Shown one piece after another: positions 13,001 through 58,749 of a stretch of DNA of 64,000 bases (the stretch's first letter is position 1; every line of letters begins with the position of its first letter). Source of the stretch: Blasia pusilla (lineage: Eukaryota); the NCBI GenBank assembly GCA_050084515.1, contig CM114271.1, positions 4,216,001 through 4,280,000 on the forward strand, written 5' to 3'. The notes under the pieces are model-generated. The model had not been told where the DNA came from. It did not search any database and worked only from the letters and a program-made list of their open reading frames with translations. A program made the position numbers and the translations under genes.

Positions 13001-13312
13001 CCCGACCTCAAGAGGCTTTTTGGGAAAGCCGTACTATGACAAGCTATACAAATTTACATTGACTTGACTTTCGCCCTTTCCCCTCGCCGTATCGTAGGAT
13101 AGCTGAAACTACTATGAATGGTTTATGTGTTGGGTTTCACATGCTACGGTCCAAAATGCTTCTCTCTTCGCGTCGACAGGCTAATTCCAAGCTCATTTCG
13201 CACTCCCGTGTGCCTTTCTTCGTCAGCCGGTGGTACTAAGTCGAGATCAGGAGCCACATCACAAGGAAGCCCACAAGGAACCCCAAAAGAGAGTAAAATG
13301 TTCTACGGCGTT

Positions 13313-15301
13313 TTATCCTCGAGTTCTCATGATGGTGATCGTACCGTTTCCTTCGGTATGAATTTTTGTAAGAGCCACTACAGACTTTCCCGATAGACCG
13401 CCTGACCCGGCCTGCGGTGCTGGCCGAGAATCCTCGCCAGATTGAGGTCCAGGTCTGGATGGAGGCATTGAAATCCTTTGGTTTATGTCATGCAACGTCA
13501 CGTCGCCCTGAGCTCCACAAGGCTTGAGAAGAGCGAAAGGATAAGCCACCGGAGTGACCGATTTCGGTCTACTGCTTTGCATAGGAACCATTCTCCTCCC
13601 TGTATCCAGTAGCAAGATGTGTAAGATTTCATGGAAAGGAACACAACCAGGCCGTCGGGAAGTCTAATTGGAAACGTTTCGTTCTGAGTAGACAAATTCG
13701 GGTGCATTACCGGGATTAGGAGACCTTGCGAACGGTGTAGATGGACAGTCAAATTCTTGGTGCTGATTGCTGGAGCAGTCTCCTGTGAACAGCCAAGATA
13801 AGCACATGAGTGTGGTATCGGACAGGTCGCGCGAAATGCTTCCAGCTTGGAGGAATCAACCGGATGAACTAAAACTCGGAATTACAATCAAGACACTGGG
13901 TAGCAAGGCAAGTCAGTCAAACTGGCCGTACCAGATTTGTCACTCACAGGGACCGCCAATTTCCTGCGTCACAACAAGATTGGAAAAGTGAGCTGAGATC
14001 GCCACAGCATCTCAAGAGGGTCGGGAAGAAGCTTTCTAGAATATGAAAACTCTCATGTTTGAGATGACCTACGTCGGATCGGAAGCCAGATCACAGGCCA
14101 TTGGCACCTGGTAGTCACCAAAACACCTAGCCATCCACTTCTCAGATGCAGGTTCCAAAGTTTCGTCTACAGCGAATTGCGACTCATCTGCAGTAGACAT
14201 ACATTTGAAATTAGCGACTTATATTCGTGCGCTGATTCCGCCATGCGCACTAGGTGCCAACTACAGTCCTTCAGCTGACACACGAGATTATGCTTTAAAA
14301 TAATTACCGTTTTGCAAGTACCAGAGAGAGCTTGGTGACGTGGGAACAGGATTCTCAAACCTCTCGAATTCCTCGCAAACCGGAATCATCGGCCCACCGC
14401 CAATCTGCGAGCAAAGATCGGTGATCGTTGTAAGTGACTTGCAACTACTTCAAGAAACTAAACCATAGGACGGTAAGCGCAAACCTTACGATTGAGCGAG
14501 AAGTTAAGGGTAAAGCCTCACCCCAAAAGGCGAATCGACCGCAGCTTCGACAGGTGTATTATCACACGTAGTACTGCTCTCTTCTTCCGAACCAGAAAAA
14601 CGCAACATCCGCCGTCTTTTCAATCGGGGACTTCCCTCACGGGGTGAGATGTCGGAGGGTACTTCTTTACTTTCTTCGTACTCCGCCAAGTTTCCTGGAA
14701 ATGCAAAGAACCATCCGATAATATCATATCTCAAGCTGAAAGAGAGGAACTCGTGAAAGAACATCCATCCTCCACTGGAATCTACCATTCATGTTGCACA
14801 TTTGAAAACACGTCGTAACGCCTCCCACCTTTCCTGTAAAATGATGATGGAAGACGACCGGAGTCGACAGTGTCGGTCGTCGGAGTAGTCGCAAACAACG
14901 AGCGGGAATCAGCTTCGCTTTGAGCCAATCCATCCCACAAAGAGCGAGAAATGGCTGCAAAAACAACCCCAGTGTGTAAAATCACCGTATACGTCAGAAG
15001 GAATTATTCCGAGCAAAACCCCAATGAGAAGTACTAGATGAGAATTCAGCAAGCGTCACGTAAGATTATTTGAACTAAATCAAGCGGTAACGATGGAAGT
15101 GCTAGACAGCGAGGGTCACGATAAGTAAGAAACTTCACACGGTAAGGTCAGCAAGACCATTGCAACGACTACATCCGCTACAAAGATCGGAATATCTGTA
15201 TCGTCGACCTATGCGAGAAGTAGCAGCGTTCGCGTACCTAATGGAGATTCAGCATCAAGTTTGTAGGAGTCGTCTTGCCAAAACCAGTCTTTCTCCTCCA
15301 T
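13313..15301 (-). CDS. XRI1: XRI1-family protein (X-ray induced 1-like), multi-exon; approximate exons 15301-15238, ~14955-14830, ~14694-14523, ~14187-14073, 13782-13711, 13599-13313
   Basis: N-terminal MEEKDWFWQ, the KRRRMLRF motif, EKWMARCF, and the family C-terminus YPFALLKPCG...TLHDINQRI...GLSGKSVVALTKIHTEGNGTITIMRTRG-stop. GT-AG junctions are present; internal exon limits are approximate. Confidence 0.85.
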
Positions 15302-18300
15302 CGCAAAGTGATTACTGGCACAATTCGACCCTATAATCCTCAACTATCGACAGCTGAGTCTCTCGCTATGGACGCCACAGAGCCTTTGCCGAAATGGCAG
15401 ATCTGAACTTTCGAAGTTCCGGGAGCTTCACAACTCATGAGAGTCTTGAAACGTCACACCTGACGGAATTCGCGGGAGAGTTGGATGCTGAAGGGGGGGG
15501 GATAGGAGTCTTGGAGACATCCAACAGAACTACAAAAAGCGCGAATTACCCCGGCAGATCGGAATCGGAGGAAACACAAAGGCTCACAAAGGCGTAGCTG
15601 CGAATGCCTTCCCAGGCCTTGAACACGTAATTGCGCAGACGTGGCGGCAAGAACAACAAGATAATTCCCAAAAATTCCTGGTGATCGTCAAGATCAATAG
15701 TGGAAGCTGCAAGAAGAGTGACGGTATGCGTTGGCAAGTGAAACTGAACTGAGCGGACGCAAGCTGTCGATTGGACCCGAGCTATTTCCTAGAATGATGT
15801 TGATAACAATTATCTTGTAGAGGGGATAGAATCCAATGGTCCTAAGTCCCATGGAAGGCTAGACGATTCGATGTCATCAGACCAAGTTAACGAGGCTGGT
15901 TAGATCAGGCTGTAATTGAGAGAGTGTGTAATGTGCAAGGCCTCGGCCCAGGAATTTCTCAGAATTTGAATCTAAATACTGTCTTCTACCTGATAAGGAA
16001 TCCAAGAAACGCTTCCCTCAAAGGATCGCTACTCGAGGTATCCGACGAATCGAAGGAGGCGAATACGAATATCTTGCAATGAGCTAATCCCGTGATCGAG
16101 CATAATCGCAGGTCAAATGACAGACACGGCAGCTTCGTTTAGGCGCGCGTCCACAAAGGCTTCCCACGGCTAAAAAATGTCAGGACATAGAAGAAACATG
16201 TAGAAACCTCGTCCTGTGACCAGAGCTAAATTGAACCCTCAGTCTTGATCGACTACCACAACATGATCGAGCGCCATAGCCAGAATGTCGCCGGAAAGTA
16301 GAGCAGGCGGTGGACATCGATCATACATGAACACTTTCAGCTCTCGTACCCCATTCTCTGGTATCCTTCCTTCCCCGCTCTTCCTCTCTTCCTCTCTCCC
16401 CCAATTCCTAATACCCTGCCCGTCCGTCGTCTTTGACAGCGAGAGATGGGGGGGGGGGGTGGTGGAGGGGAGATGGCGCGGGCGCCGTTTGCATACTTAC
16501 TCTTTACTACGTCCGCAAATAGAAGAATGTGAGAACCGCCACTAAAGTGACTAAACCAACTGGCAGTGCATACGGTAGCTATGAAGCACGTGGCATCGCG
16601 TATTAGTGTGCAGTGTTATGTTTCCGTGTTTCTGTTTTGACTCATCCACCTGCCCGGTGGTGGTGCTTCACATGAACTAAGTCCGTCATGAGCGACTGTT
16701 GAAAGCGGTGTCACGCCTCCAGGCACCACTACAGTTATCCGACTACAGCGAACTCAATTCACACGTGTAATAAGACTGATGTGTCTTGCTCGTCTTCCCG
16801 GATGACTTCGCACCGGACAGATGGGGCGCGATTCTAGTGAAAGAACAAAGATGCATTTCGATAAAAACGAGTGATGGAAAACCCATCGAAAAGGAAGAAG
16901 GGGGCATTCCCCCTAACGACGAAACTCATCAGCAAAGACAATATCAGCAACAACAAGAGAACTATGACTACTACTAGTGGGCCTAGTGAAATGGAAAAAA
17001 AAAGAAAATGAGTACTCTATCCGCAGACGTTTCAAGAAATCTATTATTATTATTTATATTTATATTACGAGCACCGATTATGCAGTCCGACAGCCCTGAA
17101 ATTCCAAACGCAAGACTCGCGATCAACCTCTTTCCGATCATGCTGCTCCTGCTCCTGCTCCTGAATACTCGCTCGACTCTGGAGCCCGATCGTGCCGATC
17201 GAGGTCTGTGTTCAAAAGTTCTGCATCCGGCCGACCTCTGAACTCTTCATTGAATTCACAGCTCCACATCGAGCGTGTCCAGCGCGGAAATTCGTCAGAG
17301 AGACGTTAAAGAAAGACATCAGTTCATAATCTCCCTCGGGGACCCCAAACAACAAAATACAGAAACCACGCTTCACGAGTGACCAGTCACGACCACTGCC
17401 GATAATACGATAGCAACGTATGTCTGGTCGCCCTCTCTACATTCAGCCACGACACCCCTTTTCTTCCCGACCTCCAAATATAGCGTTTCTCCCCCACCCC
17501 ACCCCACCCGTCTCCCCTCCTCACCGCGCACGCACGCCCGCAGGCAGGTACTCCACTATCTCATTGGCCGATGGCTCCTCCACCCGACGCCGTCTCCCGA
17601 ATTCAGGGGTCGTCACCGGAAGACAAGGGCCCCGAAGCGCGAGGCCGGGTTTACCGGCAGACCTGCCCGCCCCGTCACAACGCCGCCTTTGGCAGGATTT
17701 TGTAGCTGGAGCGCACGGAGATGAAACCCTACTGTCTTGGCGAGGTGGGGGCAGAATGACGACGAGGGAGCCCAAGTGAGGGAACAGGCGCTATTCGGAG
17801 AGCTTCTTGATTTCGTAAGGGCCGCGATAAATAATGTACTGCAACGATACAGGTGTATAGAGGACGTGGTGGTACACTTACTGTACTGGATACCGATCAC
17901 CAACGGGAGGTGGTGCCTTGAGCTGTTGAGCGGACGGAATGTCGGCTGCCTCTCACAACTCGTGCCCTGTCGCGTTCGCTTAAGTTGCGACGTTCGCGAG
18001 TCGTGACGGGCGCACAGTTCGAGGCGTCTCGTCTCGTCTCGCTGACTGTCACGGCAGCCTCGAGGAGAGTTGACCTTTCGTCACTGTTTTCCGTAGATGC
18101 AGTAGGTGCCGTCGCGACCTACGCACTGGCAAGGGTCCGTCCGTCCGTCCGTCCGCGACATCGCTCGCTCGCTCGCGGCGGCGCTATCGACAAAGACAGA
18201 TAACGAATAGCACGCGTGAACCGACTAATTGAGGACGGACTGACGGACGACGTCCTCCTCTTCGTGCGTTCTGTCGCTCCACGGTCGTGTTCAATCGTCA

Positions 18301-20238: not shown

Positions 20239-22183
20239 TTTCATCTATCGTCATGAATTATGCAAGTCCATTCTTCACTAAATATTTCATGCGCAAATCC
20301 GTTTTTATCTTTAAACATATCATCCATAAGTTTTTTTTTTCACAAAGGATTCATGTCCTCGTATTTTGAGGATTATTTCTTGATCTCTCTATATTGTGTT
20401 GTCGTCCATAATTGCGCGCAATGGAAAAAGTAGAATATTGCACCAATGATTGCTTCCACAAGTGCTTCAAATGTTAGTTGTCAGTATGTGGAACATAAAT
20501 TCTATAACAAATTTCAATTCAACTAAGTATTCTTTTGCAAAATGATGTCATATGACCCTTCTGATGGTCACGAAAACTCTCTATCAAAACTATGGCCCCA
20601 ATGCATCAAGGAGGAAGGAATCCTACACAAAAAATCTTTCTCGCTAAACTAAAATTTTAGTCATCCTCCTCTCTCAGTTTTAGCAAGCCACATAATAATA
20701 TTCCCTCTTTTGAGACTCATCATGAAGATAATCTCCTAAGTCATGGCAATATAGCCCCCCTATTTCAAGCATCATTAACCAAGTCTCTCTTATGTTGGCC
20801 TAGACGACCAAAATTTTGAAACGCTCCATGATCATCAAGAGCATGGCCATTGCATAGGTTTTCAAAGTGCTAAGGAAAGAAGATAGCGCCTCTAGGGAAT
20901 AATAAGACGAAGATAAGATGAAGTGTGGTAGGTATGGAGAGCGCTTAAAGAGAAATAAAGAACTATAGTTGTTCAACATTAAGCAGGAGGACCTAAGCAA
21001 AATCAGATCCATGATTAATTAGGAGACGACAGAGCATATGTTGACACTAATAGTGGATGAAACATAACAAAAATGGGAAGGTTTTAGCAGCTTCAAAAGG
21101 GACTATGATTCAGACTACTGTTGTATACTTATGTGTTGTTGCATGATACTTGTCCACTAAATACACTACATAATATGAATCACAAAAATTAGTGTAAACT
21201 TCCTATACGCACTATGGACGAGTGAAGAATCGATCATGTGTACGCATGCATAAACGTAAGTATAAATCTTGATTAATGTTCAAAATTTTCCAGAAACTTT
21301 TACTGGTAGAGGATTAATTAATTAATAAGATAATAAGTAACAATATGTATTATTTGAACTACATGCACTTGCACTACCGAGTACACATCAATAATATGGG
21401 GAAGAGGAAAAAAAGGATAAGAATTTATGATTAGCGTTTAGTATTAGCACCAATGTTTTGAAATAATTTTTCGTTAACACAAATAATTTGAATATCGCTA
21501 GTTTTGGTGAGGGTCCATTGGGAAACTTTGTTATACCAAAAGGATCTTACACAATTATGGAGTATGGTGGTTTTCTCAACAAACCCCATGCTCATTAACT
21601 TTTATCATGTGGGTTTTTTCTATTTATGTGTATTAAATTTTCTATTAACCTCACGAAGAAGAACCATTTCCACAATTGCAAGCAACAAAATATGGCATTC
21701 CAAGGTTGCATAGTATGGATCATTCATCAAGCTCATTTAGTGGATAATCCAAAACCACAATTTTATATTATCATCAAAGTTTTTAATTAAAGAATGTAAG
21801 ACTTTAGGTAATTGAATTGAGTTTTTAGTATGATATGAATTTCTATGATTACAATTTTTTATGAAATATTTTTTCATACATGAAAATTCCCATTGAACTA
21901 GACATGGGTAGTACAAAACCAACACCCTAAAAGAAGGACACCATTCTAAGAACATTGTTATAAAAACACACCTACTCCATATCAATTGAATTCTTTGCTT
22001 GAGAGGGCTCAACTTTATGGATTAATAAGAAATTGGATCTATTCATCCATCCTATGGATAGAACCCTTATTGCACTAAATAGCACAATACCTATCTACAT
22101 GCTTTATGGCGAAAAACCTTGCGTGGATTTGTTTATCATTTTCTCTTTCTTTACAATGGAGGCCTCTTATGCCAGCTAGGCTT

Positions 22184-22696
22184 TGTCAGGTCTTTTAGGA
22201 TAGATCGGTGAGATCTAGTGGAACGCCTTTGAGTAGTGGAGGACATGCTCAAGAGGTTGAGGATGACCTGATGAGGCCCCGAGAAACCTAAGAGAGCAAG
22301 TTTTCCCTTCGTTTCGGATCATTTGGAGCCATATTGAGGAACATACTATTTTAGGTAAGTACCATTTTGAGTATATGGTCGACTTTCTAATTTTTTTAAG
22401 CGGCCCTTGGTCTCCTACATCAGGTCAAGAGCCAAGGAGGTGACTTGGGAGCATAGGTTACCATGGAGAGAGCTTGAGAGAGGGGAGGGGTATACCTCAA
22501 GGAGAGAGAGTTTGAGAGCTCATTCTCTCTTTATTGAATCTCTTGGCACGAGGCGACGGAGCTATGGTCCCTTGCCTTTTGAGTGTAACCCAAGCCTCTC
22601 ATTAGGAGAGTGGGTTTGGTTTGACATGGAGAGAGACATGTGAGAGTGCACACATTTGAGAGCAATGGTGTTGAGAGAGATTGGATCTTGATTTAC
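22184..22696 (+). repeat. Element 1 repeat B1 (5' terminal, promoter-bearing)
   Basis: Direct repeat of 32301-32835 with substitutions and a ~20-bp indel. TATA-like TATA at 22491 and Inr-like TCATT at 22520. Confidence 0.9.
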
Positions 22697-25600
22697 AAAG
22701 AAAGAATGAGATGAGTGAGAGAGCTTCATGGGGGAGCTCATTGGTCACTCGCTGGTTTTGCAGGTTGGGGATCGTATTCCCCGTTCAGCGGTTCATGGGA
22801 GTGCTCACCGTAGCTGGATCCACTCATTTTTTATGTTTTCTTTGCTGATTTTTTGTTTGTAAGTGTGGCGCGCGGGAGCGCTGCCCAATTTTTGATAGGG
22901 ATTGAGTATGGGGCCGAATTTCCCCATGTCGGTACTCTCGGGAGCACCATGTAGCTTGTTGATTTTTATTTTCACAGGTTTTATAATTTCTTTGGGAGAA
23001 ATCAGCGCGGAAGCGCTGCCAAATTTTGTGTAGGAGAAAGAGACGTTGGGCTTTACGACAATCCCCGTCAGTTTTTACTAGAATGTCCGATTCAAAATAT
23101 TTTTTAATACTGTCACAGATCGTAAAGCTGTGCACGCTGTGCAAAGACAGTGCACAATTTGAAGTTGCGAGCAAAAATTTATGGTCAATCTTGCAGAAAT
23201 GCCATTGCTAGGCAATTTTTAGGGTAAAATTGTTCAAACCCTTAAGCAGCCGCTGCGCCGGCAGCAGCCATCGCCGTCATAGTCACCATCAACGGTCAAC
23301 CATCACCATCAACGGTCCTCTGTCACCGTCAACGGTCTACCCTCCACCGTCCACTGGCGGTCGCCACCGCCGCCTAGCACTGATCATAACCGCGTTCGGC
23401 CGTTGTTCACCCTTGGTTGCTATTGCCGCCATTACGGAGTGGAGGGTCTTCCACAACGACTGTTGATTCTTTGACTTGTGCCACCACCACGTACTTTATT
23501 TTGGCCGCCATTGTCATCGCAATTTCGTCATCAACGTGTGATGGCAAGTGACCTCGGGTTATAGTGTTTGAGTTTTCATTTCATTCTGCTATGTTGTGAT
23601 TGGTTGCTGCTCGAGGACGATCGAGTACCGTGCCGTAACGCCCATAGCTGCAACGCGCCGCCGATTGCCGCGTTGTGCCGCTCGTGGCCGCACCGCACCG
23701 TCTCGATCGCAGAGCCGCTCCTTCACTAAGGAGCACATCGTGTGTATTTTTTATTGAGGAGGGTATGCCATGGAGTGCCGCATCCCATTATCGAGTGACG
23801 TGCCGTTTTGTGCCGCCAGTGCCGCACCGTACCGCGGGATCCGCACCGCATATCGAGGAGGTTTGAGCAGCGTCAATACGAGAGGAGTACGACTTGCTGA
23901 TTGGAGGAGTTGTCTTCAAGACCAAGTTGGGGTTGAAATTTGCAGTTGCCGAGGAGCGACATCGACATTATTATCAGGTTACCCAATCTGGTCTCTTACC
24001 CTACATGTGTGACGGAATTCCGGGTATTAGGAAGTTATTTGGGATATTGGGCTTCATACTAATGTTGAGAGCATTGATGGCATATGGGTTGAGGGGACAT
24101 ATACCTATGTGGGATGTCCAGAGTTGAGGATGGTTTATCGATGAGATTATAGATAATTTGATTTGCCGCACCACGCCACTTGTTGCCGCACAACACACAT
24201 CTCGGTGAGAGAGTGTAGCTTGAGTGCCGCATGTTAGATTGAGTGATTCCGTGATTACTCGTGAGGTTGAGAGTGATCGTGTGAAGGGGGCACGAGGGTC
24301 ATCACGGCATCCTTTTGAGACTTTGAGAGGTGAGGTGGTAGACCGGAGAGTAGCTCTAGAGGGTTTATGCGGAGTGGTGCGAGGTTTCGAGGGTCTCCAC
24401 GTGCGGGACCACCTCGACCTCCTTCTGTGTCATCTTTAGACAAGGAGGAGGGCATAGAGGAGTTGAGTAGTGCTTTGCCACTCACATTGAGTAGTCCTAT
24501 TGCTTGGACGTACAAGATGGACGACTGACGTAGAGGACCGCGTAGGTTCTTAGGTGCAGTAGGCACGATAGAGTTGCAAGACTTCATCGCGGAGTTTAGG
24601 AGTTGGTACGACTCACAACGTGCTAGGAACTCTAGAGAGTTCAACCCGTTATCAGCATGGAATGTATGTTCCAGCATTTAGAGGGGACACCCATGAACGA
24701 TTACCATGAGTTCTCCCACAGATATGCCCAAGAGATTGAGGCATGGCGACTCTACTTTGACCCACACTATGTGTCATGGACGGAGTCGTTCCCAGTTGAG
24801 GAGGAGGAGTTAGGAGACGCTACTTCCTCTTCCACCAATGATGTTCTAGGAGGGTAACTCACATTGGAGCACTTGCACTGTCCATTCTGGTTCGTCCCAC
24901 GTTCCACCCCGTGGTTGAGTTCTTTGCTGAGTTGAGGGCGAGCTACCAGGGGGTACGGACGGAGAAGTTGCGGAGCATCCACGACTTCGAGAGGCGCCCG
25001 GGTGAGAGTAACCTCAATGCCATAGCGGCAATGTGCTCATGTAGCTGCTATATCTAAGCAGCCATCCCAGCCTCACGCCCGACGTCTCCCTCGACGCGTC
25101 TAGGTGGTGGGACTCTACCTCCTCCACAAGCAACTCCACCACCCTGTTAGGCAACTCCAACTCCGCGTTCCCCAATAGGACCACCTGGTGTAGATTGTTG
25201 CTATGGCATGGAGGTTACTCGATGTCAGATCCGTGGCCTTGAAATCATATGGAGCAGCCAAAGATATGGAGGATCTTGGTTTGATGTGTGGGGTTTCCCA
25301 GGTGGAGGCCGCCATAGTTGTGACGCGTGGAGCAGCCGTAGAGTTGGATCCACAGCAAGGGGAAGCCAGGAAACAGACCAGACTTCCTCAATCTTTCACG
25401 TTGTCCGAGGCGATGAGGACCCCATCAATGGGTCCTCATCAGAGTTCTTGAAGAGTTGGTGATGTTATTGGTATGCAGCATAGAGGGCAATGGGAGAAAC
25501 AAGTGCGAAGACTCCTATTGTGGATGCTCAGAAGGAGCATGAGTCGAGTACGATGTTGGGGGCGGCCACAATGGTGTACCGTGCTCTGCTATTTTTTGCT

Positions 25601-26586
25601 TCCGATGTTATGACATTGGGAGGTACGCCCATCGAGGTGTTTCGGCTGGCTGCTATGCTAGGTGAGCGTGGAGTTGGAGTTCTTGCATCACGTTCAGAGG
25701 TGATTGCAGAGGAGGTGATGGACCTGCCCTTGGAGCTTATGCTCAGGCCGTCCACGTTAGATTCATGGTAGGCTACGGCTGCTAGGATGGCGGAGATGCC
25801 CACTAAACCCGCGATAGAGCGTGCCATGGCTTCACCTGGTGTTGTGTAGTTGGATAATCGGGGAGAGGTCTTCGAGTTGGTGAGTCCAGAAGGTAGAGCT
25901 TTTAGTCCGCAACGCGTCTTGTTGGATTCAGGAGCGCAACCCTTGATGTTGGGGAAAGCGTCATTCAGAGGATTGGGTTTGATGAGAGCCAATGTAGAGC
26001 GTTGTCCATTCCGGATATAGACATCCTTGGGTGGAATGAGTACCACCCAGTATATTACCCAATAATAGGTCATGGTGAGGATTCGCCCGGGACATCCTAC
26101 AGATGAGTCCGTGGTGCGAGCCAAGGCGATAGTGACTGATGGAGAGTCCTACGAGGTCTTGGTTGGTGGAGCAGTGTTATACCCGATGGTGTTTTCATTG
26201 GATTACTGGGAGAAGTCAGGGTCCTACAGACCAGGATGGCAGTCAGGTGATGGGCGCCTTAGCTCATTACCCTTTCGATTCAAAGGTGCAGTGATCGAGC
26301 GACGTCTAGGAGAGATGGCGACCTTAGCAGCATTGAGCAGTGCCATCACTTGGCCTAATGATTTGATTGAGGGACATGTCCATACAAAGGATACTACCGT
26401 TCCTAACATTTCTATGGAGAGGAGTGTCATGGTAGTCGCATCAGTCCGTGGAGGAGAGGTGCCGCTTTGGGGCTCGATTGAGGAGCTTCGACGCTTAGCC
26501 ACTAAGCATGTACAGACCGCGTGGAGCGAGATGTTTGCACTAGAGTGTGACGAGTCAGAAGACCCCAAGTAGCTAGGAGTGCCACT

Positions 26587-27590
26587 ATGACCCCTTTGGA
26601 CACCACCCTGATTGTGTGGTGCATCCCAGAGGAGGGTATTCGGGTATTGGATCTCTTTGGAGGGATCAGCACTAGGTTAGTTGTTGTTTTGCAAGCTAGA
26701 GTGCGCGTGCAGCAGTACCTGTATGTGGAGATTGATGATGTTGCGAGGCGCGCTTCCTTTCACCATGTGACGAAATTATGCCTCCGTTTTCCCGACTTAT
26801 TGTCTGCGTCCGCCATTCAGGGTTATGAGAGTTCCCTACCGAGGGACATTTCATTGTTGGAGGCGCAAGACTTTGAGCGGGTAGGGACCATAGACTTGGT
26901 CATTGCTGGTTGGCCATGTCACCGTCAGTTGAGTGTTGGACAGGGTAGCAGATTAGCTGACTCTCGGTCCATGTTGTTTTGGGAGATGATGCGAATCTTG
27001 CGACACTTGCAGGAGCATCAGTCTCGTCCTCCAGCATACATTATGGAGAATGTACCAATTTTGGGCGATTCGAGGTCCCGTGTGGTGACGAGCGCACAGC
27101 AGGTGCGGGCATGGATTGGCTCGGTAGTTTTTTTGGATGCGTCAAGTGTGGGTTCACGAGCGCATCGCCCGTGTGTGTGGTGGACCAACTTGGTGCCACA
27201 TGAGGTGTTACGGAGGGCTTATGCGCGAGTGGGGCTTCCCTCCGAGTTTTTGGTGGATTCTATATTGGATCCGGGCCGTCGATCATTAGCAGTGAGGCAC
27301 GCTGATTGACCGTTGTTGACTGTGGTCATCAGGATTAGCATGCCACGGGCAGCCTTTCCCACATTGGTGAGTTTTCTTGCTTCCTATGCATTCAAGGAGG
27401 CCGGGCCTGGCTTGGTTTGGGATGACTAGGAACAAAGGTTGGTGGAGCCCAACGCCGATGAGCGAGAGCGAGCAATGGGATTCCCTATAGGAGTGATGGC
27501 AGTACTATCACTATCAGAGGCATCACGATGTCATGTATTGGGTCAGGCGATGGACCTAAACTGCTTGACATGGTTTTTCAACTTAGGAGT
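26587..27590 (+). pseudogene. DNMT3-like C5 cytosine methyltransferase domain of element 1
   Basis: Motif I IRVLDLFGGIS; II YVEID; IV DLVIAGWPC; VI YIMENV; VIII LDASSVGSRAHRP..WWTNL; IX ERERAMGFP; X VLGQAMDL. Internal stops at 27307 and ~27427. Confidence 0.9.
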
Positions 27591-29840
27591 AGTTGAGTAG
27601 GGTCGTTTGAGGATGCGACAGATCACAACAGTTGCGTTGGTGAGCCCCGTGCCTACCAAGACGATTAAGGCAGGGGCTGGGGCAAGATCCGAGGAGTCCA
27701 AGGTAGTCTCTCCCGATCACCACGGATGATCGGGAGAGACACCCTTGGACTTCTTGGGATGTTTTGCAGATACGCCAAGAGATGGTAGCCACAACATTGA
27801 GCGTGGTTCCGGGTACTGCACGTGGAGATGAGAGTTCTACTGTCCGAGACGGGGTTGCACCATAGCAACCACCAACACCCGCGCCAAAGAGTCCTACCGA
27901 TGGAGACTTGGGAGCCAGATATGGGCCCTAAGTTGACAAGAGGAGAGCGGCGCCGGATACATCAATTCCTGAGGAGTTATAGGAGCTATTTTGCATTTAG
28001 CATGCAGGATTTGGGTACGTTGAAGGGTCTAGGGATCCCCATTGAGTTGTCGAGTGACACGCCGATCTTCCGATGATCCTACAAATACAGTGATATGGAG
28101 AGGGCTCTGATTCAAACTAGGAGCCAGAACTTGGTTAGAGCAAGACTAGTGAAGATGTCGCATGGAGAGTATGGATCTGCCACTATCATGCCCGCCAAGA
28201 AGGATGTGCATGGCAACTGGACGGATAGGCGGATATGTGGAGATTACCGACCTATCAATTGGCAGACAAAGCCCGATAGGTATGCCATGCCCACCCCTGA
28301 GGAGATCTTTGATATGATTGGGCATGCAAAGGTATTCAATTCATTGGATTTGCAAGCCGGATACCATCAGCTGCCTATCAGATTGGTGGACAGGCAGAAG
28401 ATGGCATCTTGGGGCATTGATTCTCACGAGAAGGATTGTTTGTACCAGTGGCTGTCCTTACCATTCGGGTTAAAGAACGCCCCGGCTGAGTTTCAGAGGA
28501 TCATGGATAGGATCTTGGCATGTCTCGATTTTGCTAGGTGTTATATTGATTACATCGTAGTCTTTAGCATCATGGTTGAGGAGCATGAGGGACATCTAGA
28601 GAAGGTGTTTCGATGATTGCAGTTACATGGGTTGAAGCTACATCCAGGCAAGTGCAAGTTCTTCTACGACCAGATTGAGAACTTGGGTCATACAATATAC
28701 CCAAGGGGCCTTGATGTGCAGCAAATGAAGGTATAGGCTATTTCACGCCCTACAGATGTGAGTCAAGTTTGTGCATTCATGGGATTGGAGAACTTCTATC
28801 GACGGTACGTCAAGGGTTTCAGTTCGATTGCAAAGCCGCTAACCTTGCTGACCAAGGTGGATCAGGAGTGGCATTGGGGGGATGAGCACGAGAGAGCATT
28901 TCAGCTGCTCAAGGATAGATTGATGTCCGCGTCCATATTGAGGAGACCGATCAGGGGGCTTCCTTTCCAGTTGCATACCGTTTGGAGCATGTTGGGGCTT
29001 GGAGCCGTGCTCACCCAACATGACGATGATGGTAGAGAGTTCGTGATGGCTTATGCTAGTCGCTCGAACAACGCTGCAGAGGCAAAGTATAGCTTGTATG
29101 AGGGTGACTGCTTGGCTGCGGCATGGGATGTTGCATATTTTAGGTGTTATTTATTCGGCAACCCCTTTACCATCATTACTGATCATCAGCCACTTAAGTG
29201 GTTGATGGAGTTCGACAAGCTTACAGGGAAGCTTGCGAGGTGGGCTCTTATGTTGCATGAGTATGACTTCCAGGTGGTGCATAGACCTGGGACGCTCAAC
29301 CAGGATGCATAAGGTTTGAGCCGTAACCCATATGGGAGTCAGCGAGATGCGACTGGAGCTCGTTGGCATGGTGAGAGTGATGAGGAGTTGGTGCCAAGAT
29401 GGCACGCATCAGCTTATTTCGGCTTGTTGGCTATGGGGCGCCAGATTGCTGAGACTTCAATGGCAAGGTTTGATGGAGAGTCCTTAGATCCAAAGGCCGG
29501 TGAGGAGACAACTGGTGGCCGAGACATTCACGACTATGGAGTGTTCTTGGAGTATATGCGTACTGGTAGCGTCGCGAGCATAGTGGGTACTAGAGAGCGG
29601 GATCGGATCCTATAGCAAGCCAGACGGTTCCGGTGGGAGGGGACACATGTGTTGTGATTTTGGGAGGATGGTAGAGTGCGTGTGGTGCCTCATCCTTCGC
29701 AGAGAGCACGTTTATTGCGTCATGCCTACGAGGAGTTGGGTCATTTTGGAGTGAAGCGAATGTACAGCTTGCTCCATATACAGTATTGGTGGCGAGGCAT
29801 GCAGACTGACGTTCAACAATTTATTGCCCAATGCATGGTG

Positions 29841-30866
29841 TGTCGCAACCCTAATAACCAAACAACACCAAATAGGCGCCAAGAGGAACATCAAAACTCA
29901 AGGGGACTCACGTTGCGATGTTTGCGCTTTGGAGAGGCGTTTGGAAAGGTCTCTTGGAAAAGTCCAAGAGATGAAACGCGGAACAGATTTGTATGTTTCA
30001 TGCGTTAGTGGTCGCGACCAGGAATACTAGACCAAACGCGAGCCAAGACTTGAGATGAGTTGAGTCTTGGAAGGTTGGTTGCCAAAGAGGTAAGAACCAG
30101 TTTTGGAACACGACTAGCAATTGGGGAATTTGACTGTATTTTGGACCATAACGTTTATCCCCAAGATGAGTTGGGGACAAATAAGGGCGCGTTAGAAAGC
30201 TTATCTTGAGAAGCTTCCAATGCACTAAAGATCTTAGCAAACGCTTAAGTATGGATTGAGATATTGGCCACAAATGATTGTATGAGCAATCGGGTTGAGG
30301 GCCAATTGGAGAGGCCCGGGTGTCTTTCCCTAAATATAGGGAACCCCAGAGATCCCCAGATTACTAGTAAAGGAGGATTCTCTCCAAGATGGCTTGGAAC
30401 ACGAATCCCCACTTTGAGCACCAAACGCCAAACTCCATCACCCCACGGGATGGAGTTTGGCGTTGGAACTCGAAACCCAAACCTAATCCAAGGGAGTGGA
30501 CTTTGTACGCCACCCTTGGATTCCAGCCCGAGATTCACTTTGTGCAAGTGTTGGTTTGGGACTCATTGGATGTCCATCGGATAGTTTGAACCGCCAGGCC
30601 CGAAACGCCGTTTGAAGTTCCTGAACCGACCAGAAAGTCTATCCCAAGTCTTTCGAAACTTGCCCGTGTTGTAAACCGCAAAACTAGGAAGGTTGAGCTT
30701 GATGAGAGACCAAGACGAGAACTCGGAAAGTTAGCTTGCTGATTGATCCAAGACCCGACTAACCAGAGTGCATGTTTGGATGCAGATCAACGTTGAGAGT
30801 AAGACCTACTGAACGCACGCTTCCGCAACAACAAGATTAACGTTCAAGGAGAGTAGGCGCACGACA
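29841..30866. mobile_element. Solo LTR of another family nested in element 1 integrase
   Basis: TGTCG...CGACA termini with 5-bp TSD TGGTG (29836-29840 and 30867-30871). Removing it restores QCMV|CDRVRASFN, matching element 2. Confidence 0.9.
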
Positions 30867-32172
30867 TGGTGTGTGATCGAGTCCGAGCATCGTTCAATTC
30901 TCCGACTCCACAGTTGCATTCACTTCCAATCATGGATTTAGGTTAAAGATGTTGTTTGGATTTTGCAAGACCTTTGCCTTTGACGGAGCGCTATAGTCGT
31001 TATGTGTTGGTGATGGTCGAGCACTTCTCGAAGTGGATAGAGTTGGTTGCATTGCCTCACAAAGCGAGTGAGAGAATAACGTATGCCTTCCTAGATCGAG
31101 TGTTGAGTCATTATAATACACAAGCTAAGGTGTTGAAAGACCAGGGTATAGAGTTTCGCGGGGAGTTTCAGGCCTTGTGTGATCAGGCGTTGATCGGCCA
31201 CCGCACTACTTCGCGAGATCATCCTGAGGCGGATGGACTAGCGGAGAAAGCGATGGTGACAAGAGGATTACGCAAGTATGGCTTGCAAAGAGGTCACCTA
31301 GGAGATTGGGAACTCCAGTTGCCGTGGTTGGCGATGGAATACAGATTCAGCAAGTAGGCATCCTTAGCGTCTTTCCCATCGTACTTCCTTTTCTATGGCC
31401 GAGAGCCAGATTTACTTGCGGCCATTCGTCAAGATGTTGGTCAGGTGTTGAACCTTCATGATCATGATGTATGGATGCGAGCATGTTCTCAAAGGACTGA
31501 GTTGTTTCGAAGAGTGATGCCCATGGCGTTTGAGAAGTTGGCGATTGCACAACATCGGGATACGTTGAGCAATGCGAATATTTGAGGAGGTGATTATCGA
31601 TCTACTATCCGGAGGTTTCATCAGGGAGACTATGTCTACTTGCAGCAGACGGCACCCACGATGTTGGATGTGATTGTAGGGCGTACCATCTTGAGAGTGC
31701 GTGAGGTTTTGCCATCAAGTATTCTCTTATTGGAGGGACGCGATGGTATGGTTTGGAAGGACCATATGAGTAATTGTGCGTCGTGTCACCTTCGGAACAT
31801 TGACGGTACAGTTGATCCGAGTTTAGCAGTAGTTCCTGCAGGCTTGCAATGTATGTTGTGTGGTTATGCCCGTGGTGCAGCCACTATGCTAGTCTGTGAT
31901 GGATGTTTGAGAGGATGGTATATGGCATGCTTGACGCCACCTCTCACTAGGGTTCTTCAGGAACGATGGATGTGTCCCAGATGTACATAGAGTAGGTAGT
32001 TCTACAATCCAACTTGTGTCTGTGACATGGATGATAAGAAGGTGACTAACAATGGGGCCACATGAGCACCCGGCCTTCTTGCTCTTAGCATCCGAGAGAT
32101 GTATGTCATGGTAGGTAAGGATAGATGGCTATCTGGAGTTAGAGGGATCTAACCACCAACTAGGGGGGCGAT

Positions 32173-32961
32173 TGGAGATATTTTTGTACTTCTTGTTTCG
32201 TTGTTTGGATGCCATGAGTTAGCATGGGATCGTGTGTGTTTGTATGTGTGTTCGGTGACAACGATGTATATTGTGTAGGGATGTATATGCGCACGACAAT
32301 TGTCACGTCTTTTAGGATAGATCGGAGAGATCTAGAAGAGCGCCTTTGTGAGTAGTGGAGGATATGCTCAAGAGGTCAAGGATGACCTGCTGAGGCCCTG
32401 GGAAACCTGCTCTCTCAGGTTTCCCAGGGTCTCTCTTAGGTTCCCCTTCATTTCGGCTCATTTGGAGCCATATTGAGGAACTTGCTATTTTAGGTAAATA
32501 CCATTTTGAGTATATGGTCAACTTTCTACTTTTGTTAAATGGCCCTTGATCTCCTACATCAGGTTAAGAGCCAAGGAGGTGACTTGGGAGCATAGGTTAC
32601 TATGGAGAGAGCTTGGGAGAGGGGAGGGGTATACCTTAAGGAGAGAGAGCTTGAGAGCTCATTCTCTCGTTGTTGAACCTCTTGGCACAAGGTGGCGGAG
32701 CTATGGTCTTTTTCCTTGTGAGTGTAACCCAAGCCTCTCATTAGGAGAGTGGGTTTGGTTTGACATGGAGAGAGATATGTGAGAGTGCACACATTTGAGA
32801 GCGATGGTGTAGAGAGAGATTGGATCTTGATTTACTGGAGATATTTTGGTACTTCTTGTCTTGTTGTTTGGATGCCATGAGTTAGCATGGGATCGTGCGT
32901 GTTTTTGTGTGTGTTCGGTGACAGCGTTGTATATTGTGTAGCGATGTGTATGCGCACGAGA
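32173..32961 (+). repeat. Element 1 3' terminus A1-AT-B2-A2, preceded by PPT AGGGGGG (32162-32168)
   Basis: A1 (32173-32298) and A2 (32836-32961) are 126-bp direct repeats flanking B2; junction CGACA-AT-TGTCA at 32294-32305. Confidence 0.92.
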
Positions 32962-34184
32962 GCTTCATCACTCACATCCACCTCTCCAAACGGAGTGCAA
33001 TGGATTTATTTATGCGCATCTCTAAAGTCTTCTAGGGTTTTGAGTTATCTCGGCTTTCACCCAAGGAGGATATAAGATTTTTTGGTGTTGGTTACTTATA
33101 GACCATTCATCACCAAAATTTATGTGCCCTTATTGAGCCAACTACACTCCGTCAACCCCACCAACTTCTCCAATTCTCTGAAGGCAGAGCAATAATGGCA
33201 CTATTTTTGCATGTCTCCAAAGTTATCTAGGGTGGAGGCTCACAGAGGCTTCACTCAAGGTTCTGCGATGCTGGTTAAGATTATTTCCTTCTTACTCCAC
33301 GCTACCGAGCCACATAGACTCCATCTGCCATACCAACTTCTTGGAACGGAGAGTACTAATGGCACTATTTCTCAACATCTCCAAAGTTATCAAGAGTCCA
33401 AGGTTTTCCTAAGGAAAGTACTATTTGGGGATACTTGTTCATACAAGAAAATCACTTCTGCTAATGGGATAAAGTTGGGGAAAATAATTTTTAGGATGGT
33501 GTGGGATTTAATGGATGTCACATCTAAGTAGCCGATAGGTAGGGATCTATCCTGACGATGACATAGAGAGCCGGCGTCCACGGACTATCTTGAATGTAAC
33601 TTCGTCTTGAGGTGTTGAATGGGGTTGAGGATAGTTCCGTTGTGTCAGAAACGTCGTTTCTAACAACTTTTCTGTTTGGGTCTTTCACAGTTGAGTGACT
33701 TACTAAAGAAGTCACCCGAATATATGTGCGCGCAGGTTACCAAGAGGATTTCTATTTTTAGGGGAAGAGCCTTTTGGCTCTTCTCACACCTATATATGGG
33801 AGAGGGATGGTTTTCCCAAGCCATCTTTCTCATGTTGGGCCATTGGAGCATCTCTCTTGTTCGTGTGTGAGAAAGAACCAGGGTGCTAGCGTCCGGATTC
33901 CTTAATAGTACAAGATGGACGAGGCTCGATATGCCAATGTAGATTGAGGAGTGGAGTTTTAGACTAGATGTGCCATTTTTACTCTTATTTTTGTTGTATG
34001 ATCTCGATGTACATGCATGAGTTGATTTTTGTTCATGTGTGGATCTATCCGTATGTTGGGGAAGATTGGTGTTGTATGGTGTAGATGTGACCAGCGATAT
34101 GTATGCACACAACATGGATATAAGAATTTTTTTTAATGAAAATTCTATATTCTTATTGCATAATACCTTTTTTGGTCAAATTCC

Positions 34185-34537
34185 CATGGTTGCATAGAAA
34201 TGGAGATGTCCATAGACTTGCCCTTTTTGGTACCCTGGTGGCCTACGTGGGCTCGAGATGAGGGAACGGGGTGCAGCCTTAGATTAAGGGAGGCAGGCAG
34301 GATACGGCCCGCCCTATGCAGGCCTATTGCGGGCCAATGCGGGCCTAGAGCGGGTCAGGTGGGCTACAAAAAGGGCGACTAGTTCTTAGACTAGGTGCGG
34401 GCTAGTTGAGCCTAGGTGTACATTGCGGGCGGGGCAGGCTTGAGTGCGGGCCGTGGGTACCCACGCCCGTATGAATACGTCCGTCCTAAGAACAGACATA
34501 AGTCCGCAGACACGCATTTTGTTTGTGAGAAACCTTA
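34185..34537. mobile_element. hAT-type MITE
   Basis: CATGGTTGCA ... degenerate GAAACCTTA ends; 8-bp TSD CAAATTCC (34177-34184 and 34538-34545). Confidence 0.8.
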
Positions 34538-34572
34538 CAAATTCCTCTCCTCTTGATACATGACAGTTTCAG

Positions 34573-34750
34573 CAAGGTTGTATATAGAAAAAGTCCATAT
34601 CCACAGACATGTCCATGTTCATGGACTTAAGGTCCGTCCTATAGAAGGACTTGTCTATGTGGGCCCCATATCCCCTTTATTTCTCATCCCTCCTCTTGCC
34701 TTTGTGATCCGAACTTTCTTGTCTCTCCTCCTCCCACCTCCACTCCAAGG
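34573..34750. mobile_element. Truncated copy of the same hAT MITE family
   Basis: Starts CAAGGTTGTA; body resembles the reverse complement of 58400-58644; no second end seen. Confidence 0.6.
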
Positions 34751-35417
34751 GAAATGAGTTTTCTAATGGTCATCTATTGATTCCTATCCTTAAACACCAC
34801 ATTCTTGACGGCTCCAAGGCTACCTAGGAGCATTTAGGATGATAGGAATTTCACCCATGGAAATATATAACATAATTAGAGGATTGAGTTCTTCTTAAAA
34901 AATTTGGTGGCATGACATGTGGATAGATATGGAGATTTTTTTAAAGTGATCCCATAATAATATGAGTTTTTTTAATTCCATTCAATTTGAGTCATGTCTA
35001 ATGATTTGAATTCTTAATTTAGTTATGCATGTATTGCGCATATATGCACCTTAATGGTGCCTATTAATAATAAATATCCATATCTTTGGACTAAATATGG
35101 AAACATTTACCTTTCGTATTTTGGTTCTACATCAACCCTTGTGCCTATTCATCCTCTGGTTTTCTAACCACAGGTTGAGTTAGTTAACCCCAACCCCTCT
35201 TTAGGATTCTCCTTTGAAACAAGAATAAAATTTTCATTTTCTCCTTGCTAACAAGCAAGAGACTGTAGCTCTATGGGCAACTCCTCCCCTGCTAAACAAC
35301 TAGTTGTGTGTTTGAATCAGGCTCAAATACTCCAAATTTCCCAAGTGCTTCTCCCTACTTTACTCGACTCTCACCCCCATGACCTAACCCGAGGATGAAT
35401 AGGCACAAGGACATCAA

Positions 35418-35604
35418 CTAGTGTAAGCTCGTGCAATGCACAGGTTTGAATCACCTCCCATAATTAATCCTTAAGTGCCATTGTAAGTCAATTTTGAGCA
35501 ATCCTATTGGCTCAAAAGATAAATGATCCTATTGGCTAAAAGTGCAAAGAGGAGAAGAGTTTGCAAAATGAAAGGGTACTCTCCAATAATAATATACACT
35601 AGGA
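35418..35604 (-). mobile_element. Non-autonomous Helitron (approximate)
   Basis: The minus strand ends with hairpin GTGCATTGCAC and CTAG followed by T; possible 5' TC near 35604. Confidence 0.55.
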
Positions 35605-38449
35605 TATATGTTAACTAGTGCACTGAAAATGCCTCCACTCTTACTTGTGTCATGCAAATTAGCGAGATGTAGTAGCATGTCATTCACACAAATTTAAGTT
35701 TTTAAGATGATAAACATCTATCTACTCACTTAAAAAAATTGATTTCATTTCAAAAATATTTCAACTCTAGAAAAGGAAAGAAATACCCCATCATTATATT
35801 ATGAAGTTTTATTTATAACATTACTTCTTGATTAATTCACCTAATTTATTTCAATCTACCTAATCTAGTTTCATCACGTGCTCCATTCACAAATAGCTTC
35901 ATATAACGCAATGATTCCCCTTATTTTCTTTCCACAAGAGATGATTTGACACCTCTTTTTTTTAAATAGCTTCACTTCTTTTAGAATAAACTTCCCTCAC
36001 ACATTAACACCACTTTCCTTAATTAATAGTATAGATTATAACTAATTTATCTCTTTTGGGCATAGAATAGTATCATCAAGAAGAAAAAATCACTAAAATC
36101 CTCCCATAAACATTTTCAAACTTTCTCCCTCCACGGTGTACATTAAATGGACATAAGTGAACTCAATAAATATGGGAGGTTATGATATCGATACCTTTTT
36201 TTATCCATAAAAGTTCATCAAAATCATTGAAACAAAGTGATAAATGTTACTCATATTCATAAGACTTTGTGTTGCATATAAAGGTAGCATTAGTGAGTGA
36301 TCTCTATGAATTATTAGGAGATATATTATTGTAGTCATTCCTTCAAAGTTTTTATAAATTTGAGAGTGGAATGTGCACAAATGAGTATGATCATACCTTA
36401 AGAAATAATGAACAAAATGGAGAAAAAAATCATGATATTAAAAATATGGTCATGGTAAATTTTTAGTGATGGTGTTTCTATGTAAGCATTATTATGCCAT
36501 TAAGGTTTTGGCTATGATTCTACCATATATTCCATATTGATGTCAAAATAGAAAATCATATGCATTACAAAAAAGTGTGCTCTTAGTGTACACAAATTTT
36601 GACCAAGAAAACCTAATAAGAAGTGTCAAAGCACAAAGGAACTAACACATGTATAATCTACGGTCAAGCAAGAACTTGTTTAGAAAGTGACAAGTAGCAA
36701 AAATATAAGAATTTGCTTACAAGATCGAGCTCTTTCCTTGTTCCAATTTCTTTTGTGGCTAATATCTAGAATCAATTTTTTAACAAGTAAAAATACATCC
36801 TTGGAAAGGTATTTAGAAATGTTATAATGCACCTCAACAATTTTGAAAGTATATCTAGACAATTTACAAAGAAGTAATTTCTTAGCTCTAGATCTAAACA
36901 TCTCATAAATACATGAAGGGAAGGGAAAAGTTCCAAGTGGCTACCGATCATCTTTTGGGTAATTTCTTAATGTGATTTCTACACTATGATATTAGGGTGC
37001 ATAAGTAGTAAAAAATAATTACCATGGGAAGTTTAATATGAAAGAAGAAGTGGAGAGACTTGGAGTGAGGAAGAGATAAATTTCTTAAGGGAAGGTGGAT
37101 GACTTTTTCTTCTCTAAGTGAGGAGGTAGAGAATTTGGGAACCTTGTTTTCCTCAATTAAGGAAGGATGATAGTTTCCAAAATGAGGAGGATGAATTGGG
37201 GGTTTTCTTATTCCCAAAACTAATAGGTGGAAAGGATGAATTTCCAAATGAAGGAGGGGGCCATGGAGTGAACTTTCAAAATGTGCAATAAAGGAAAAAG
37301 TGCATTGAAATTTTCTCAAAATGAGCATAAGAATTTGTTATGTTTAATTTGTGCAATGCATGAGCGCAATAAATCTTTTCTTTATTCAATAGACTTCCCT
37401 CTTAAATATGAAGCACTAAAGAGACAAGAAAAACCATACAAAAAAAAGCCACAAATATTTTCCAATAACCAAGAAGGGGAAACTATCAAACATAAAATAG
37501 AGAATGAGAATATCCCACAAGAAAAAATAGACAATGCATGAATTATTTAATACTATTAATAATTTGTGTGCAATGTATGAGAGTCATATTAACATGTACC
37601 AAATTCTTATCATGTTAGATAGTTTTCCAATCCACATTTTTTTTTCATAGAAAAAAGCCATTTAAACAATACGATGAACTCTTTGAAAGACCGGATGCAT
37701 CAACATTCCATCATGAGGCTTCACTTAGTTTAGAATATTATTTCCATGATAAGCTCTATTATTTTAATTCTAAATTAGATGAGTATTGTTCCATTCATAC
37801 TTAGCCACATGCAACCTAGTGATTTCCTTATTTACTTTCCATAAGAGATGATATGATACTTCATATTTGCCTCTTGAAAATAGCTACAATTCTCTTCGAA
37901 TTGACTTTCCTCACATAAACCCTCTTCCCATTGTCCCTTACTCAATTAATAATATAAAGGCTATACTATATTTTACATGACTTAAAAGAAGGATGGCAAG
38001 TGTTCAAGGTGGAATATGTCCACTACTAAATCTTGATATGTTAAGACTACAAGAATACTCATCAACTTTCTTATGTCATCCACTAGGCATCCCTCTCATC
38101 AATGTTAAAGTTTGAGTGTGATAACTATCTTTCCATTTTTTTAAAATTCCCCTTTTCTATTCTCATAAAATGATTCCAATTATGAATATTCCAACTTTAT
38201 GCTAGGCAAGAATATCTCATCTTTCAGATTTATGACTTGCAAGGTGTATCCCTAATGGCATTCCTTCATCCTCGCGTGCTTCACTTTGCCAAGCATACCA
38301 ACTTAGCTAATTGGATGTCATCCAAGTTGGCATGTATCCATTGTATGAGTTAGTGGTTGATATTGTGGATACTGGATCCTTCACATCCTCCACTACTAGT
38401 ATATTCTTTGAATTTGGGCGGAAGAAATTGTGATGTTCCTCTAAATCTC

Positions 38450-39032
38450 TGTCGTGCGAATCCACATCGTCATACAACATACATCGCTGACATACCATAC
38501 TCACATACATACATAACATAGACGAGAGCATCCACAAACACAAGTGTACCACAACTGAAATCCGTGAAAGACCTACTGTCATAAAACACGTATAGAATCA
38601 CATACAATCGAGCCAAACCCACTCCACGATGGGAGAATCTAGGTCGAAGCTTGCAGGAGACACCATAGCCAAGAGCTCTACTCACTACCAAGGCTTACTC
38701 CCAACACAACAGGCTCAACTCAAAGAACTGACTGTTCTTTGAGTGCACTCCACCTTATATCCTCCAACCTAAGAGTGGGCCCTACTGGAGAAGTCACCCT
38801 CAACTGAGTAACCCCCAACCCTATGTATGAAATTGCATCTCTACCTAGACACTGCGGCCCTACATAAGGTATGGCCTCTACTAGCACACTATACTCTACG
38901 ACATAATCCGTATGGTCATGACAGCTGTCGTGCGAATCCACATCGTCATACAACATACATCGCTGACATACCATACTCACATACATACATAACATAGACG
39001 AGAGCATCCAGAAACACAAGTGTACCACAACT
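38450..39032 (-). repeat. Element 2 3' terminus A1-GC-B2-A2, preceded by PPT (plus-strand C-run 39033-39039)
   Basis: 107-bp A repeats flank a 368-bp B; junction TGACA-GC-TGTCG at 38919-38930. Confidence 0.95.
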
Positions 39033-49083: not shown

Positions 49084-49249
49084 CTAGTAAGGACTCATGT
49101 CATGCACGGATCCCTATTTATCAATAATTTGCATTAATATGCCACTCTCCTTATCTATATGACCCCAAAAGTATTTTTTGAGGGAATAGTGCTACGTGTC
49201 AAATAGAGGAGCAACTAGAAAAAATTTCCTCCTCCAATCAATATGTAGA
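49084..49249 (-). mobile_element. Degenerate non-autonomous Helitron
   Basis: The minus strand has a degenerate GTGCATGACATG hairpin then CTAG+T; 5' end approximate. Confidence 0.4.
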
Positions 49250-58644: not shown

Positions 58645-58749
58645 CAAACGTCTAAGATACCCATCAAGATGTCCAAATTCTAGTGGAATATGATAAGTTG
58701 TGTCATAGAATATGAAATTTTAAATGCATTCAAATAATGAGTTTCCATA

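Follow-up and report, generated by a model that had tools for sequence, protein, structure and literature searches.

The window analyzed here, a stretch of 64 kb in total, is plant-like, with an AT-rich background (30-39% G+C) and G+C-rich transposon bodies. It hosts two LTR retrotransposons arranged head to head, element 1 on the plus strand (22183-32959) and element 2 on the minus strand (48286-38449). Both belong to Ty3/gypsy and show the gypsy domain order on Pfam level, with RVT_1, RNase H, Integrase_H2C2, rve, and a PHD finger; in addition, both contain a C5 cytosine methyltransferase (DNMT) domain. Their coding parts share 66-72% nucleotide identity, and the elements therefore represent different families. 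Beyond these two, no further DNMT copies were found within the window. A third, distant gypsy-like reverse transcriptase (RT) lies at 60963-61890 (plus strand), with 28-34% identity to the RT of element 2 and no DNMT match nearby. Another G+C-rich block (47-53%), holding short open frames only and possibly representing another decayed repeat, covers 10000-18000. An exon-like open frame at 1004-1432 (plus strand) is probably part of a host gene; its GDLG...GDLSYA strings presumably reflect a resemblance to purple acid phosphatases.

Element 1 is bounded by a 5' LTR (repeat A, copy 1) of 514 nt at 22183-22696 and a 3' LTR (copy 2) at 32300-32835, differing at 46 of 514 aligned bases (K2P 0.096). 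The LTR pair of element 2 (5' LTR at 47916-48286, 3' LTR at 38556-38926, minus strand) is less diverged, with 12 mismatches over 371 nt (K2P 0.033). The 3' LTR, but not the 5' LTR, is flanked on both sides by another direct repeat, B (108-124 nt), resulting in the layout A - coding - B - A - B in both elements. The two B copies of element 1 (124 nt, 92% identical) lie directly upstream (32173-32296) and directly downstream (32836-32959) of its 3' LTR, and those of element 2 (38925-39032 and 38449-38556, minus strand; 108 nt, 99% identical) differ at a single one of 108 positions. This arrangement corresponds to a DIRS-like layout, here found in elements with a DDE integrase. A by-eye search for target-site duplications revealed TTTAGAG on both flanks of element 2, offset by 1 and 3 nt from the repeat ends, and nothing convincing for element 1; likewise, no clear tRNA-type primer binding site was found by eye adjoining either 5' LTR.

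The coding part of element 1 (plus strand) starts with a broken gag-like region (24349-25033), recognized by tblastn pieces with 37-62% identity to the gag region of element 2. It is followed by an aspartic protease region (25877-26281; motif LLDSGAQ, assigned from the alignment) with 58-60% amino acid identity to element 2 and by a poorly conserved linker (26315-26569; 32% amino acid identity). The DNMT domain occupies 26578-27597 in a single frame, interrupted by in-frame stops at 27307 and 27427. Downstream, a second linker (27598-27902) has no usable similarity to element 2, the blastn alignment ending at 27578 and restarting at 27902, with tblastn giving weak, out-of-frame pieces only. 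RT and RNase H (27903-29198; RVT_1, RT_RNaseH) are 70.6% identical to element 2 on amino acid level and carry three in-frame stops. The N-terminal part of the integrase with its zinc-binding region (29202-29870; 57% amino acid identity) is separated from the integrase core (30866-31414; rve 2.2e-10, 74-76% amino acid identity) by an insert of ~1 kb (29844-30864), absent from element 2 and having the 10-bp sequence CATGGTGTGT as a direct repeat on either side (29834 and 30865). The insert ends in a sequence (GGCGCACGAC) similar to that at the end of repeat B. The integrase C-terminal region (31442-31987; 68.7% identity to element 2) finally includes a PHD finger after the integrase (31850-31987; PF00628, 4.7e-8).

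Element 2 (minus strand) follows the same plan, with a gag-like region at 45660-46349 defined by the tblastn pieces common to element 1, and an aspartic protease region at 43890-44297 defined by alignment to element 1. In its open reading frame (ORF) 44932-45249, a CX2CX4HX4C knuckle-like string can be read. The DNMT domain (42563-43581; PF00145 at 4e-9, alignment to element 1, and motifs) precedes RT and RNase H, which lie within an open frame of 449 amino acids (40982-42286; RVT_1 1.7e-33, RT_RNaseH_2 2.2e-31). The integrase with zinc-binding domain and core (39779-40978; Integrase_H2C2 2.6e-13, rve 2.5e-11) is followed by the C-terminal region (39207-39752), the PHD finger (1e-10) being located at 39207-39398.

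A preliminary description of the window had placed a DNMT domain at a matching protease-DNMT-RT position in both elements, with the catalytic PC and ENV motifs retained. Domain search and motif inspection confirm this, with limits revised from 26587-27590 to 26578-27597 in element 1 and from 43560-42560 to 43581-42563 in element 2. Out of 15 ORFs scanned, PF00145 was matched in two, namely ORF 26551-27309 of element 1 (E 6.8e-10, 39.3 bits) and ORF 42865-43464 of element 2 (E 4e-9, 36.8 bits; cut-off 22 in both cases); the remaining ORFs yielded RVT_1, RNase H, integrase, PHD, or nothing. In both elements, the domain is part of the Pol reading frame, the LTR element as a whole following the gypsy order protease-RT-RNase H-integrase; it stands downstream of the protease (LLDSGAQ; 25877-26281 and 44297-43890) and upstream of RT (from 27903 and from 42286, respectively). 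The catalytic PC is found in GWPCH of element 1 (codons 26914-26922) and GWPCQ of element 2, and the ENV motif in MENV (27046-27054) and LENV (43113-43105). Along 26578-27597 the motifs follow the linear order I, IV, VI, VIII, IX, X and are not rearranged as in DRM enzymes.

Among the 33 solved structures matched by the element 1 ORF at E <= 0.01, 29 were DNMT3A/B/C and four DRM2. A profile built from element 1 and 39 homologues likewise ranked DNMT3A (4e-26), DNMT3C (1.6e-23), and DNMT3B (2.6e-23) before tobacco DRM (7.8e-14), M.HhaI (4e-9), and DNMT2 (6e-6), while DNMT1 was absent from its matches to solved structures. By sequence, the domain is closer to DNMT3 than to the other C5 methyltransferase families represented among solved structures. 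An AlphaFold2 model of the element 1 domain, read through with X at the stops, reached a mean pLDDT of 91.9 and a pTM of 0.91, being uncertain only in the catalytic loop (117-124). Foldseek placed the catalytic domains of DNMT3A/B/C on top (E ~1e-18; target TM ~0.80), and we are confident that the predicted structure is a DNMT3A-like methyltransferase fold. The domain is not a chance resemblance because profile match (4e-26 to DNMT3A), model quality (pLDDT 91.9), and fold comparison (1.3e-18 to DNMT3A) all support it. Mammalian DNMT3A/3B/3C, the best match in sequence and fold, share its motif order and short target-recognition region, but identity amounts to only ~20-24%, and the window domain lacks PWWP and ADD and is embedded in a retrotransposon polyprotein.

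The preliminary description had further proposed that the domain was under purifying selection in the active ancestors of both families, a claim to be judged by dN/dS relative to RT. Codon alignments of element 1 versus element 2 were built from in-frame tblastn pieces and evaluated according to Nei-Gojobori, with a cross-check by Biopython NG86 and maximum likelihood (ML). Seeding by protein similarity favors low pN, yet blastn aligns the same 995 nt of the domain unbroken. For DNMT (329 codons; pS 0.69, pN 0.236, dN 0.284), omega was 0.15 by NG86 (bootstrap 0.08-0.22) and 0.11 by ML, values that are rough, coming from one pair with saturated dS. The corresponding values were pN 0.167, dN 0.189, and omega 0.13 and 0.11 for RT-RNase H (429 codons), pN 0.128, dN 0.141, and omega 0.06-0.07 for the integrase core (180 codons), and pN 0.258 with omega 0.17-0.19 and 0.09 for the protease (128 codons). 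The integrase N-terminus (208 codons) showed a pN of 0.232, gag (165 codons) of 0.36, and the protease-DNMT linker (84 codons) of 0.44. Synonymous sites are saturated throughout (pS 0.65-0.78; YN00 gave no estimate for any domain), and more weight is therefore put on a frame-shift control and on the contrast with the linkers. Read in frame, the DNMT columns gave a pN/pS of 0.34, compared with 0.89 and 1.61 for the same columns shifted by one and two bases, and mismatches per codon position amounted to 0.317, 0.187, and 0.541. The stretch between DNMT and RT (27598-27902; 42562-42287) retains no detectable nucleotide similarity between the elements, while the DNMT protein is 61% identical.

LTR distances put the decay after insertion at approximately 0.048 + 0.017 = 0.065 substitutions per site for every class. 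Subtracting this value from dN leaves ~0.22 for DNMT, 0.12 for RT-RNase H, 0.08 for the integrase core, 0.25 for the protease, and 0.21 for the integrase N-terminus. DNMT evolves faster than RT-RNase H and the integrase core (dN 0.284 versus 0.189 and 0.141), and on these estimates its constraint appears similar to that of protease and integrase N-terminus and weaker than that of RT and integrase core. Neutral divergence relative to RT and integrase was not observed (in-frame pN/pS 0.34). With an omega of ~0.11-0.15 next to 0.11-0.13 for RT-RNase H, together with the frame control and the linkers, the proposed purifying selection is well supported. The same holds for the related claim that the domain is functional cargo rather than a passenger, provided that "functional" is taken to mean selected, as judged from substitution patterns.

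Comparison of the element 1 domain with 1.84 billion representatives returned 1548 clusters at a threshold of E <= 1e-3, of which 150 remain at E <= 1e-30; many of the matched clusters are polyproteins of 1000-3400 residues. The nearest named proteins, with 55-61% identity to element 1, are recorded as "hypothetical proteins" of Marchantia polymorpha, Calypogeia fissa, and Sphagnum troendelagicum. Within 147 homologues, the catalytic Cys is conserved to 100%, the following Gln to 92%, Glu and Asn of ENV to 99% and 95%, the motif I Gly to 99%, and both Arg of HRxR to 98%. A FastTree phylogeny was calculated from 149 DNMT domains, comprising these 147 homologues, each covering 250 or more of the 340 query positions, and both window copies; 30 of 177 homologues fell below 250 and were excluded. 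Elements 1 and 2 fall into a clade of 20 together with bryophyte proteins (support 100). The nearest neighbor of element 2 is a Sphagnum protein (76% over 254 columns) and that of element 1 a Calypogeia protein (61%). The two copies are not sisters in this tree; therefore, the families separated long ago with both keeping the domain, which strengthens the reading of selection.

Polyprotein architectures of 388 fetched proteins were scored using the protease, DNMT, RT, integrase, and PHD segments of the window itself as probes. DNMT preceded RT in 36 proteins and followed it in 125; 153 had DNMT without RT, and 74 gave no DNMT match. All 16 named Marchantia proteins with landmarks had DNMT after the protease and/or before RT, and the Sphagnum, Calypogeia, and Closterium proteins with landmarks showed protease-DNMT and/or DNMT-RT. 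These liverwort and moss polyproteins, known by database names only and unannotated, resemble the window elements in domain order, in DNMT identity (55-61% to element 1, up to 76% to element 2), and by sharing the fully supported clade. The named chlorophyte proteins (Haematococcus lacustris, Chromochloris zofingiensis, and Cymbomonas tetramitiformis) showed RT-DNMT-integrase-PHD or DNMT-integrase-PHD. Such green-algal Gypsy polyproteins are related to the window elements in DNMT (30-40% identity, E down to 1e-54), RT (~40-50%), and the PHD finger after the integrase, but carry DNMT behind RNase H (RT - RNase H - DNMT - integrase - PHD), whereas in the window it stands before RT. In the unrooted DNMT tree, all 25 protease-DNMT-RT rows fall on one side and 69 of 70 RT-DNMT-integrase rows on the opposite side, the deepest branch having a support of only 50; the single exception is a Marchantia protein (pr-dn-in2) mis-scored by the architecture rule. 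RT similarity (44-53%) extends the lineage to Klebsormidium, Chara, and Closterium, with many members having a PHD finger. Three Klebsormidium proteins (RT similarity 44-51%) start at RT and contain no DNMT, and the homologue searches yielded no DNMT-bearing Klebsormidium protein.

The nearest solved relatives of the PHD finger are those of MLL3, CHD4, DPF2/3, ATXR5, KDM5A/B PHD1, PHF21A, BAZ2A/B, and UHRF1. Most of these fingers read the unmodified histone H3 tail (many of them unmodified H3K4), the cue recognized in animal DNMT3 by the ADD domain. By analogy, the finger may serve a targeting to silent chromatin.

Both window copies carry lesions. In the DNMT domain of element 1, these include in-frame stops at 27307-27309 (TGA, CGG in element 2) and 27427-27429 (TAG, CAT in element 2), a PCH instead of the PCQ whose Gln occurs in 92% of 143 homologues, and the replacement of two conserved Gly by Arg in and just past motif I. 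In element 2, the frame of the domain is interrupted by a stop at 43465-43467 and shifts near 42886-42907. The alignment has 51 columns with a conservation of at least 85% across the 147 homologues, and of these element 1 keeps 40 (11 lost) and element 2 keeps 47 (4 lost). The second Arg of motif VIII is changed to Cys in both copies (HRPC; 27172-27174 in element 1, 42987-42985 in element 2; codons TGT and TGC), while HRxR is kept in all 19 close relatives. The shared Cys reflects either parallel decay of the CpG type or a change common to recent parents. Owing to this Arg-to-Cys change, activity may have been absent from the window copies and possibly already from their direct parents. An intact Gly-rich SAM-binding loop of motif I and an intact Arg-x-Arg of motif VIII are found in the relatives and no longer in the present copies; these lesions fit decay because the relatives keep the motifs. 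Judged by their sequences, both window copies are dead, neither being an intact enzyme now.

Elements of this kind are already known, and the window elements are new, fossil members. KnitGypsy-Dnmt3 of Klebsormidium nitens was described as a Gypsy element with DNMT3 in its Pol ORF, conserved key residues, a Ka/Ks < 0.2, and the DIRS-like repeat order A - coding - B - A - B (PMC5890265). KnitGypsy-Dnmt3 agrees with the window elements in its type (LTR Gypsy), in the DNMT3-type domain that lies un-rearranged in Pol, in its conserved key residues, in purifying selection (Ka/Ks < 0.2 versus ~0.11-0.15), and in repeat layout. It differs in that the nearest relatives of the window elements are from liverworts and mosses and the window copies are dead; the likeness concerns the published description. 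SymbioDIRS-Dnmt3 of Symbiodinium likewise has a DNMT3-type domain in a Pol polyprotein, with two domain orders coexisting, but is a DIRS element with a tyrosine recombinase instead of a DDE integrase and resides in a dinoflagellate host (PMC5890265). In 2018, such elements were described for one charophyte alga and dinoflagellates, the set of 96 genomes of that study being without Marchantia. Later papers, as far as their accessible text goes, mention "streptophytes (Gypsy-DNMT3)" solely as a citation of PMC5890265, and a PHD finger is known from a green-algal Gypsy element, Gypsy-7a_cRei (PMC9940879). DNMT-bearing Gypsy elements of liverworts or mosses were not described in the full-text literature searched, with most subscription journals outside its coverage, nor in the accessible parts of PMC11982613, PMC6453930, PMC5784723, PMC12344493, PMC9940879, PMC6673714, and two preprints. 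Land-plant transposon-encoded de novo methyltransferases were equally without description in the literature searched.

Taken together, both elements are very probably old, inactivated insertions of two diverged families within one Ty3/gypsy lineage of the order gag - protease - DNMT3-like methyltransferase - RT - RNase H - integrase - PHD finger, in which the methyltransferase was a selected, working part of Pol. The domain would have been translated as part of Pol and would have carried out de novo C5 methylation of the newly made cDNA or the new insertion of the element. We infer this activity because of the DNMT3 fold, the intact motif set in relatives, and the place beside RT. The same role was proposed for retrotransposon DNMT3 domains by de Mendoza et al. 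in 2018 (PMC5890265). After insertion, both copies would have decayed, largely by C-to-T and G-to-A changes, with neither now encoding an enzyme. The benefit to the element could lie in evading recognition as foreign DNA, in shielding it from deamination, in influencing local chromatin, or in self-limitation, and the 2018 authors likewise leave the benefit open (PMC5890265).

Retention of the domain for a non-catalytic role, as a structural spacer or nucleic-acid-binding module and thus a pseudo-enzyme, is unlikely. Selection on sequence is silent on chemistry, and the Klebsormidium domain produced no methylation in yeast, a result called inconclusive by its authors (PMC5890265). However, the residues serving only catalysis or SAM binding are the most conserved of all in the 147 homologues (Cys 100%, Glu 99%). 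The missing second Arg of motif VIII in both window copies could be taken as a sign of lost chemistry, but R-to-C changes at CGY-type codons (TGT, TGC) fit decay after insertion.

Even less probable is an activity of the domain on RNA, i.e., the element transcript or a tRNA primer, in place of DNA. DNMT2 demonstrates that the fold is able to methylate RNA, a tRNA-type primer binding site is not recognizable beside the 5' LTR, and RNA methylation was raised by de Mendoza et al. for a LINE-borne DNMT (PMC5890265). Yet the DNMT3 match is far better than that to DNMT2 (4e-26 versus 6e-6), and SymbioDIRS DNMT3 domains methylate DNA, two of them having conferred de novo CG methylation in the yeast assay (PMC5890265).

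An origin as a passenger is hardly credible and was rejected; under this reading, the domain would be either a piece of host DNMT3 that was captured and then carried along neutrally, or part of a chimera formed by nested insertion or misassembly. The pseudogene state of both copies and the somewhat lower conservation of DNMT relative to RT and integrase core speak for it. However, the pN/pS of 0.34, the codon-position pattern, and the frame-shift control reveal in-frame constraint. The domain also keeps its frame and position in two families between which the unconstrained linkers can no longer be aligned, and its position recurs in polyproteins from liverworts, moss, and Closterium.

Plants silence transposons mainly by cytosine methylation; therefore, a transposon with its own de novo methyltransferase poses a paradox. 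The window and its database relatives indicate that this kind of element lived in bryophyte genomes, with related elements of another domain order being common in green algae. Tentatively, they could all belong to an ancient, green-lineage-wide Ty3/gypsy clade with its own chromatin toolkit, consisting of a DNMT3-type writer and a PHD finger after the integrase. The writer would have moved within the polyprotein between a streptophyte branch (protease-DNMT-RT; Closterium, liverworts, Sphagnum, and the window) and a chlorophyte branch (RNase H-DNMT-integrase), and the lineage would have lasted into land plants. Marchantia is a genetic model, and the bryophyte relatives offer tractable hosts for studying how the enzyme serves the element. 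The bryophyte hosts, the streptophyte/chlorophyte split in domain order, and the combination of writer and reader in one polyprotein are worth following.

The CpG observed/expected ratio is 0.34-0.44 in the AT-rich stretches 34000-38300 and 48400-60000 and higher inside the elements (0.63-0.76). At third codon positions of the coding strand, C accounts for only 12% in element 2 and 18% in element 1, compared with 35-36% for G and 27-34% for T, and the excess of G over C recurs in the LTRs (skew 0.27-0.29). A C-poor sense strand is a curious property of an element encoding a cytosine methyltransferase.
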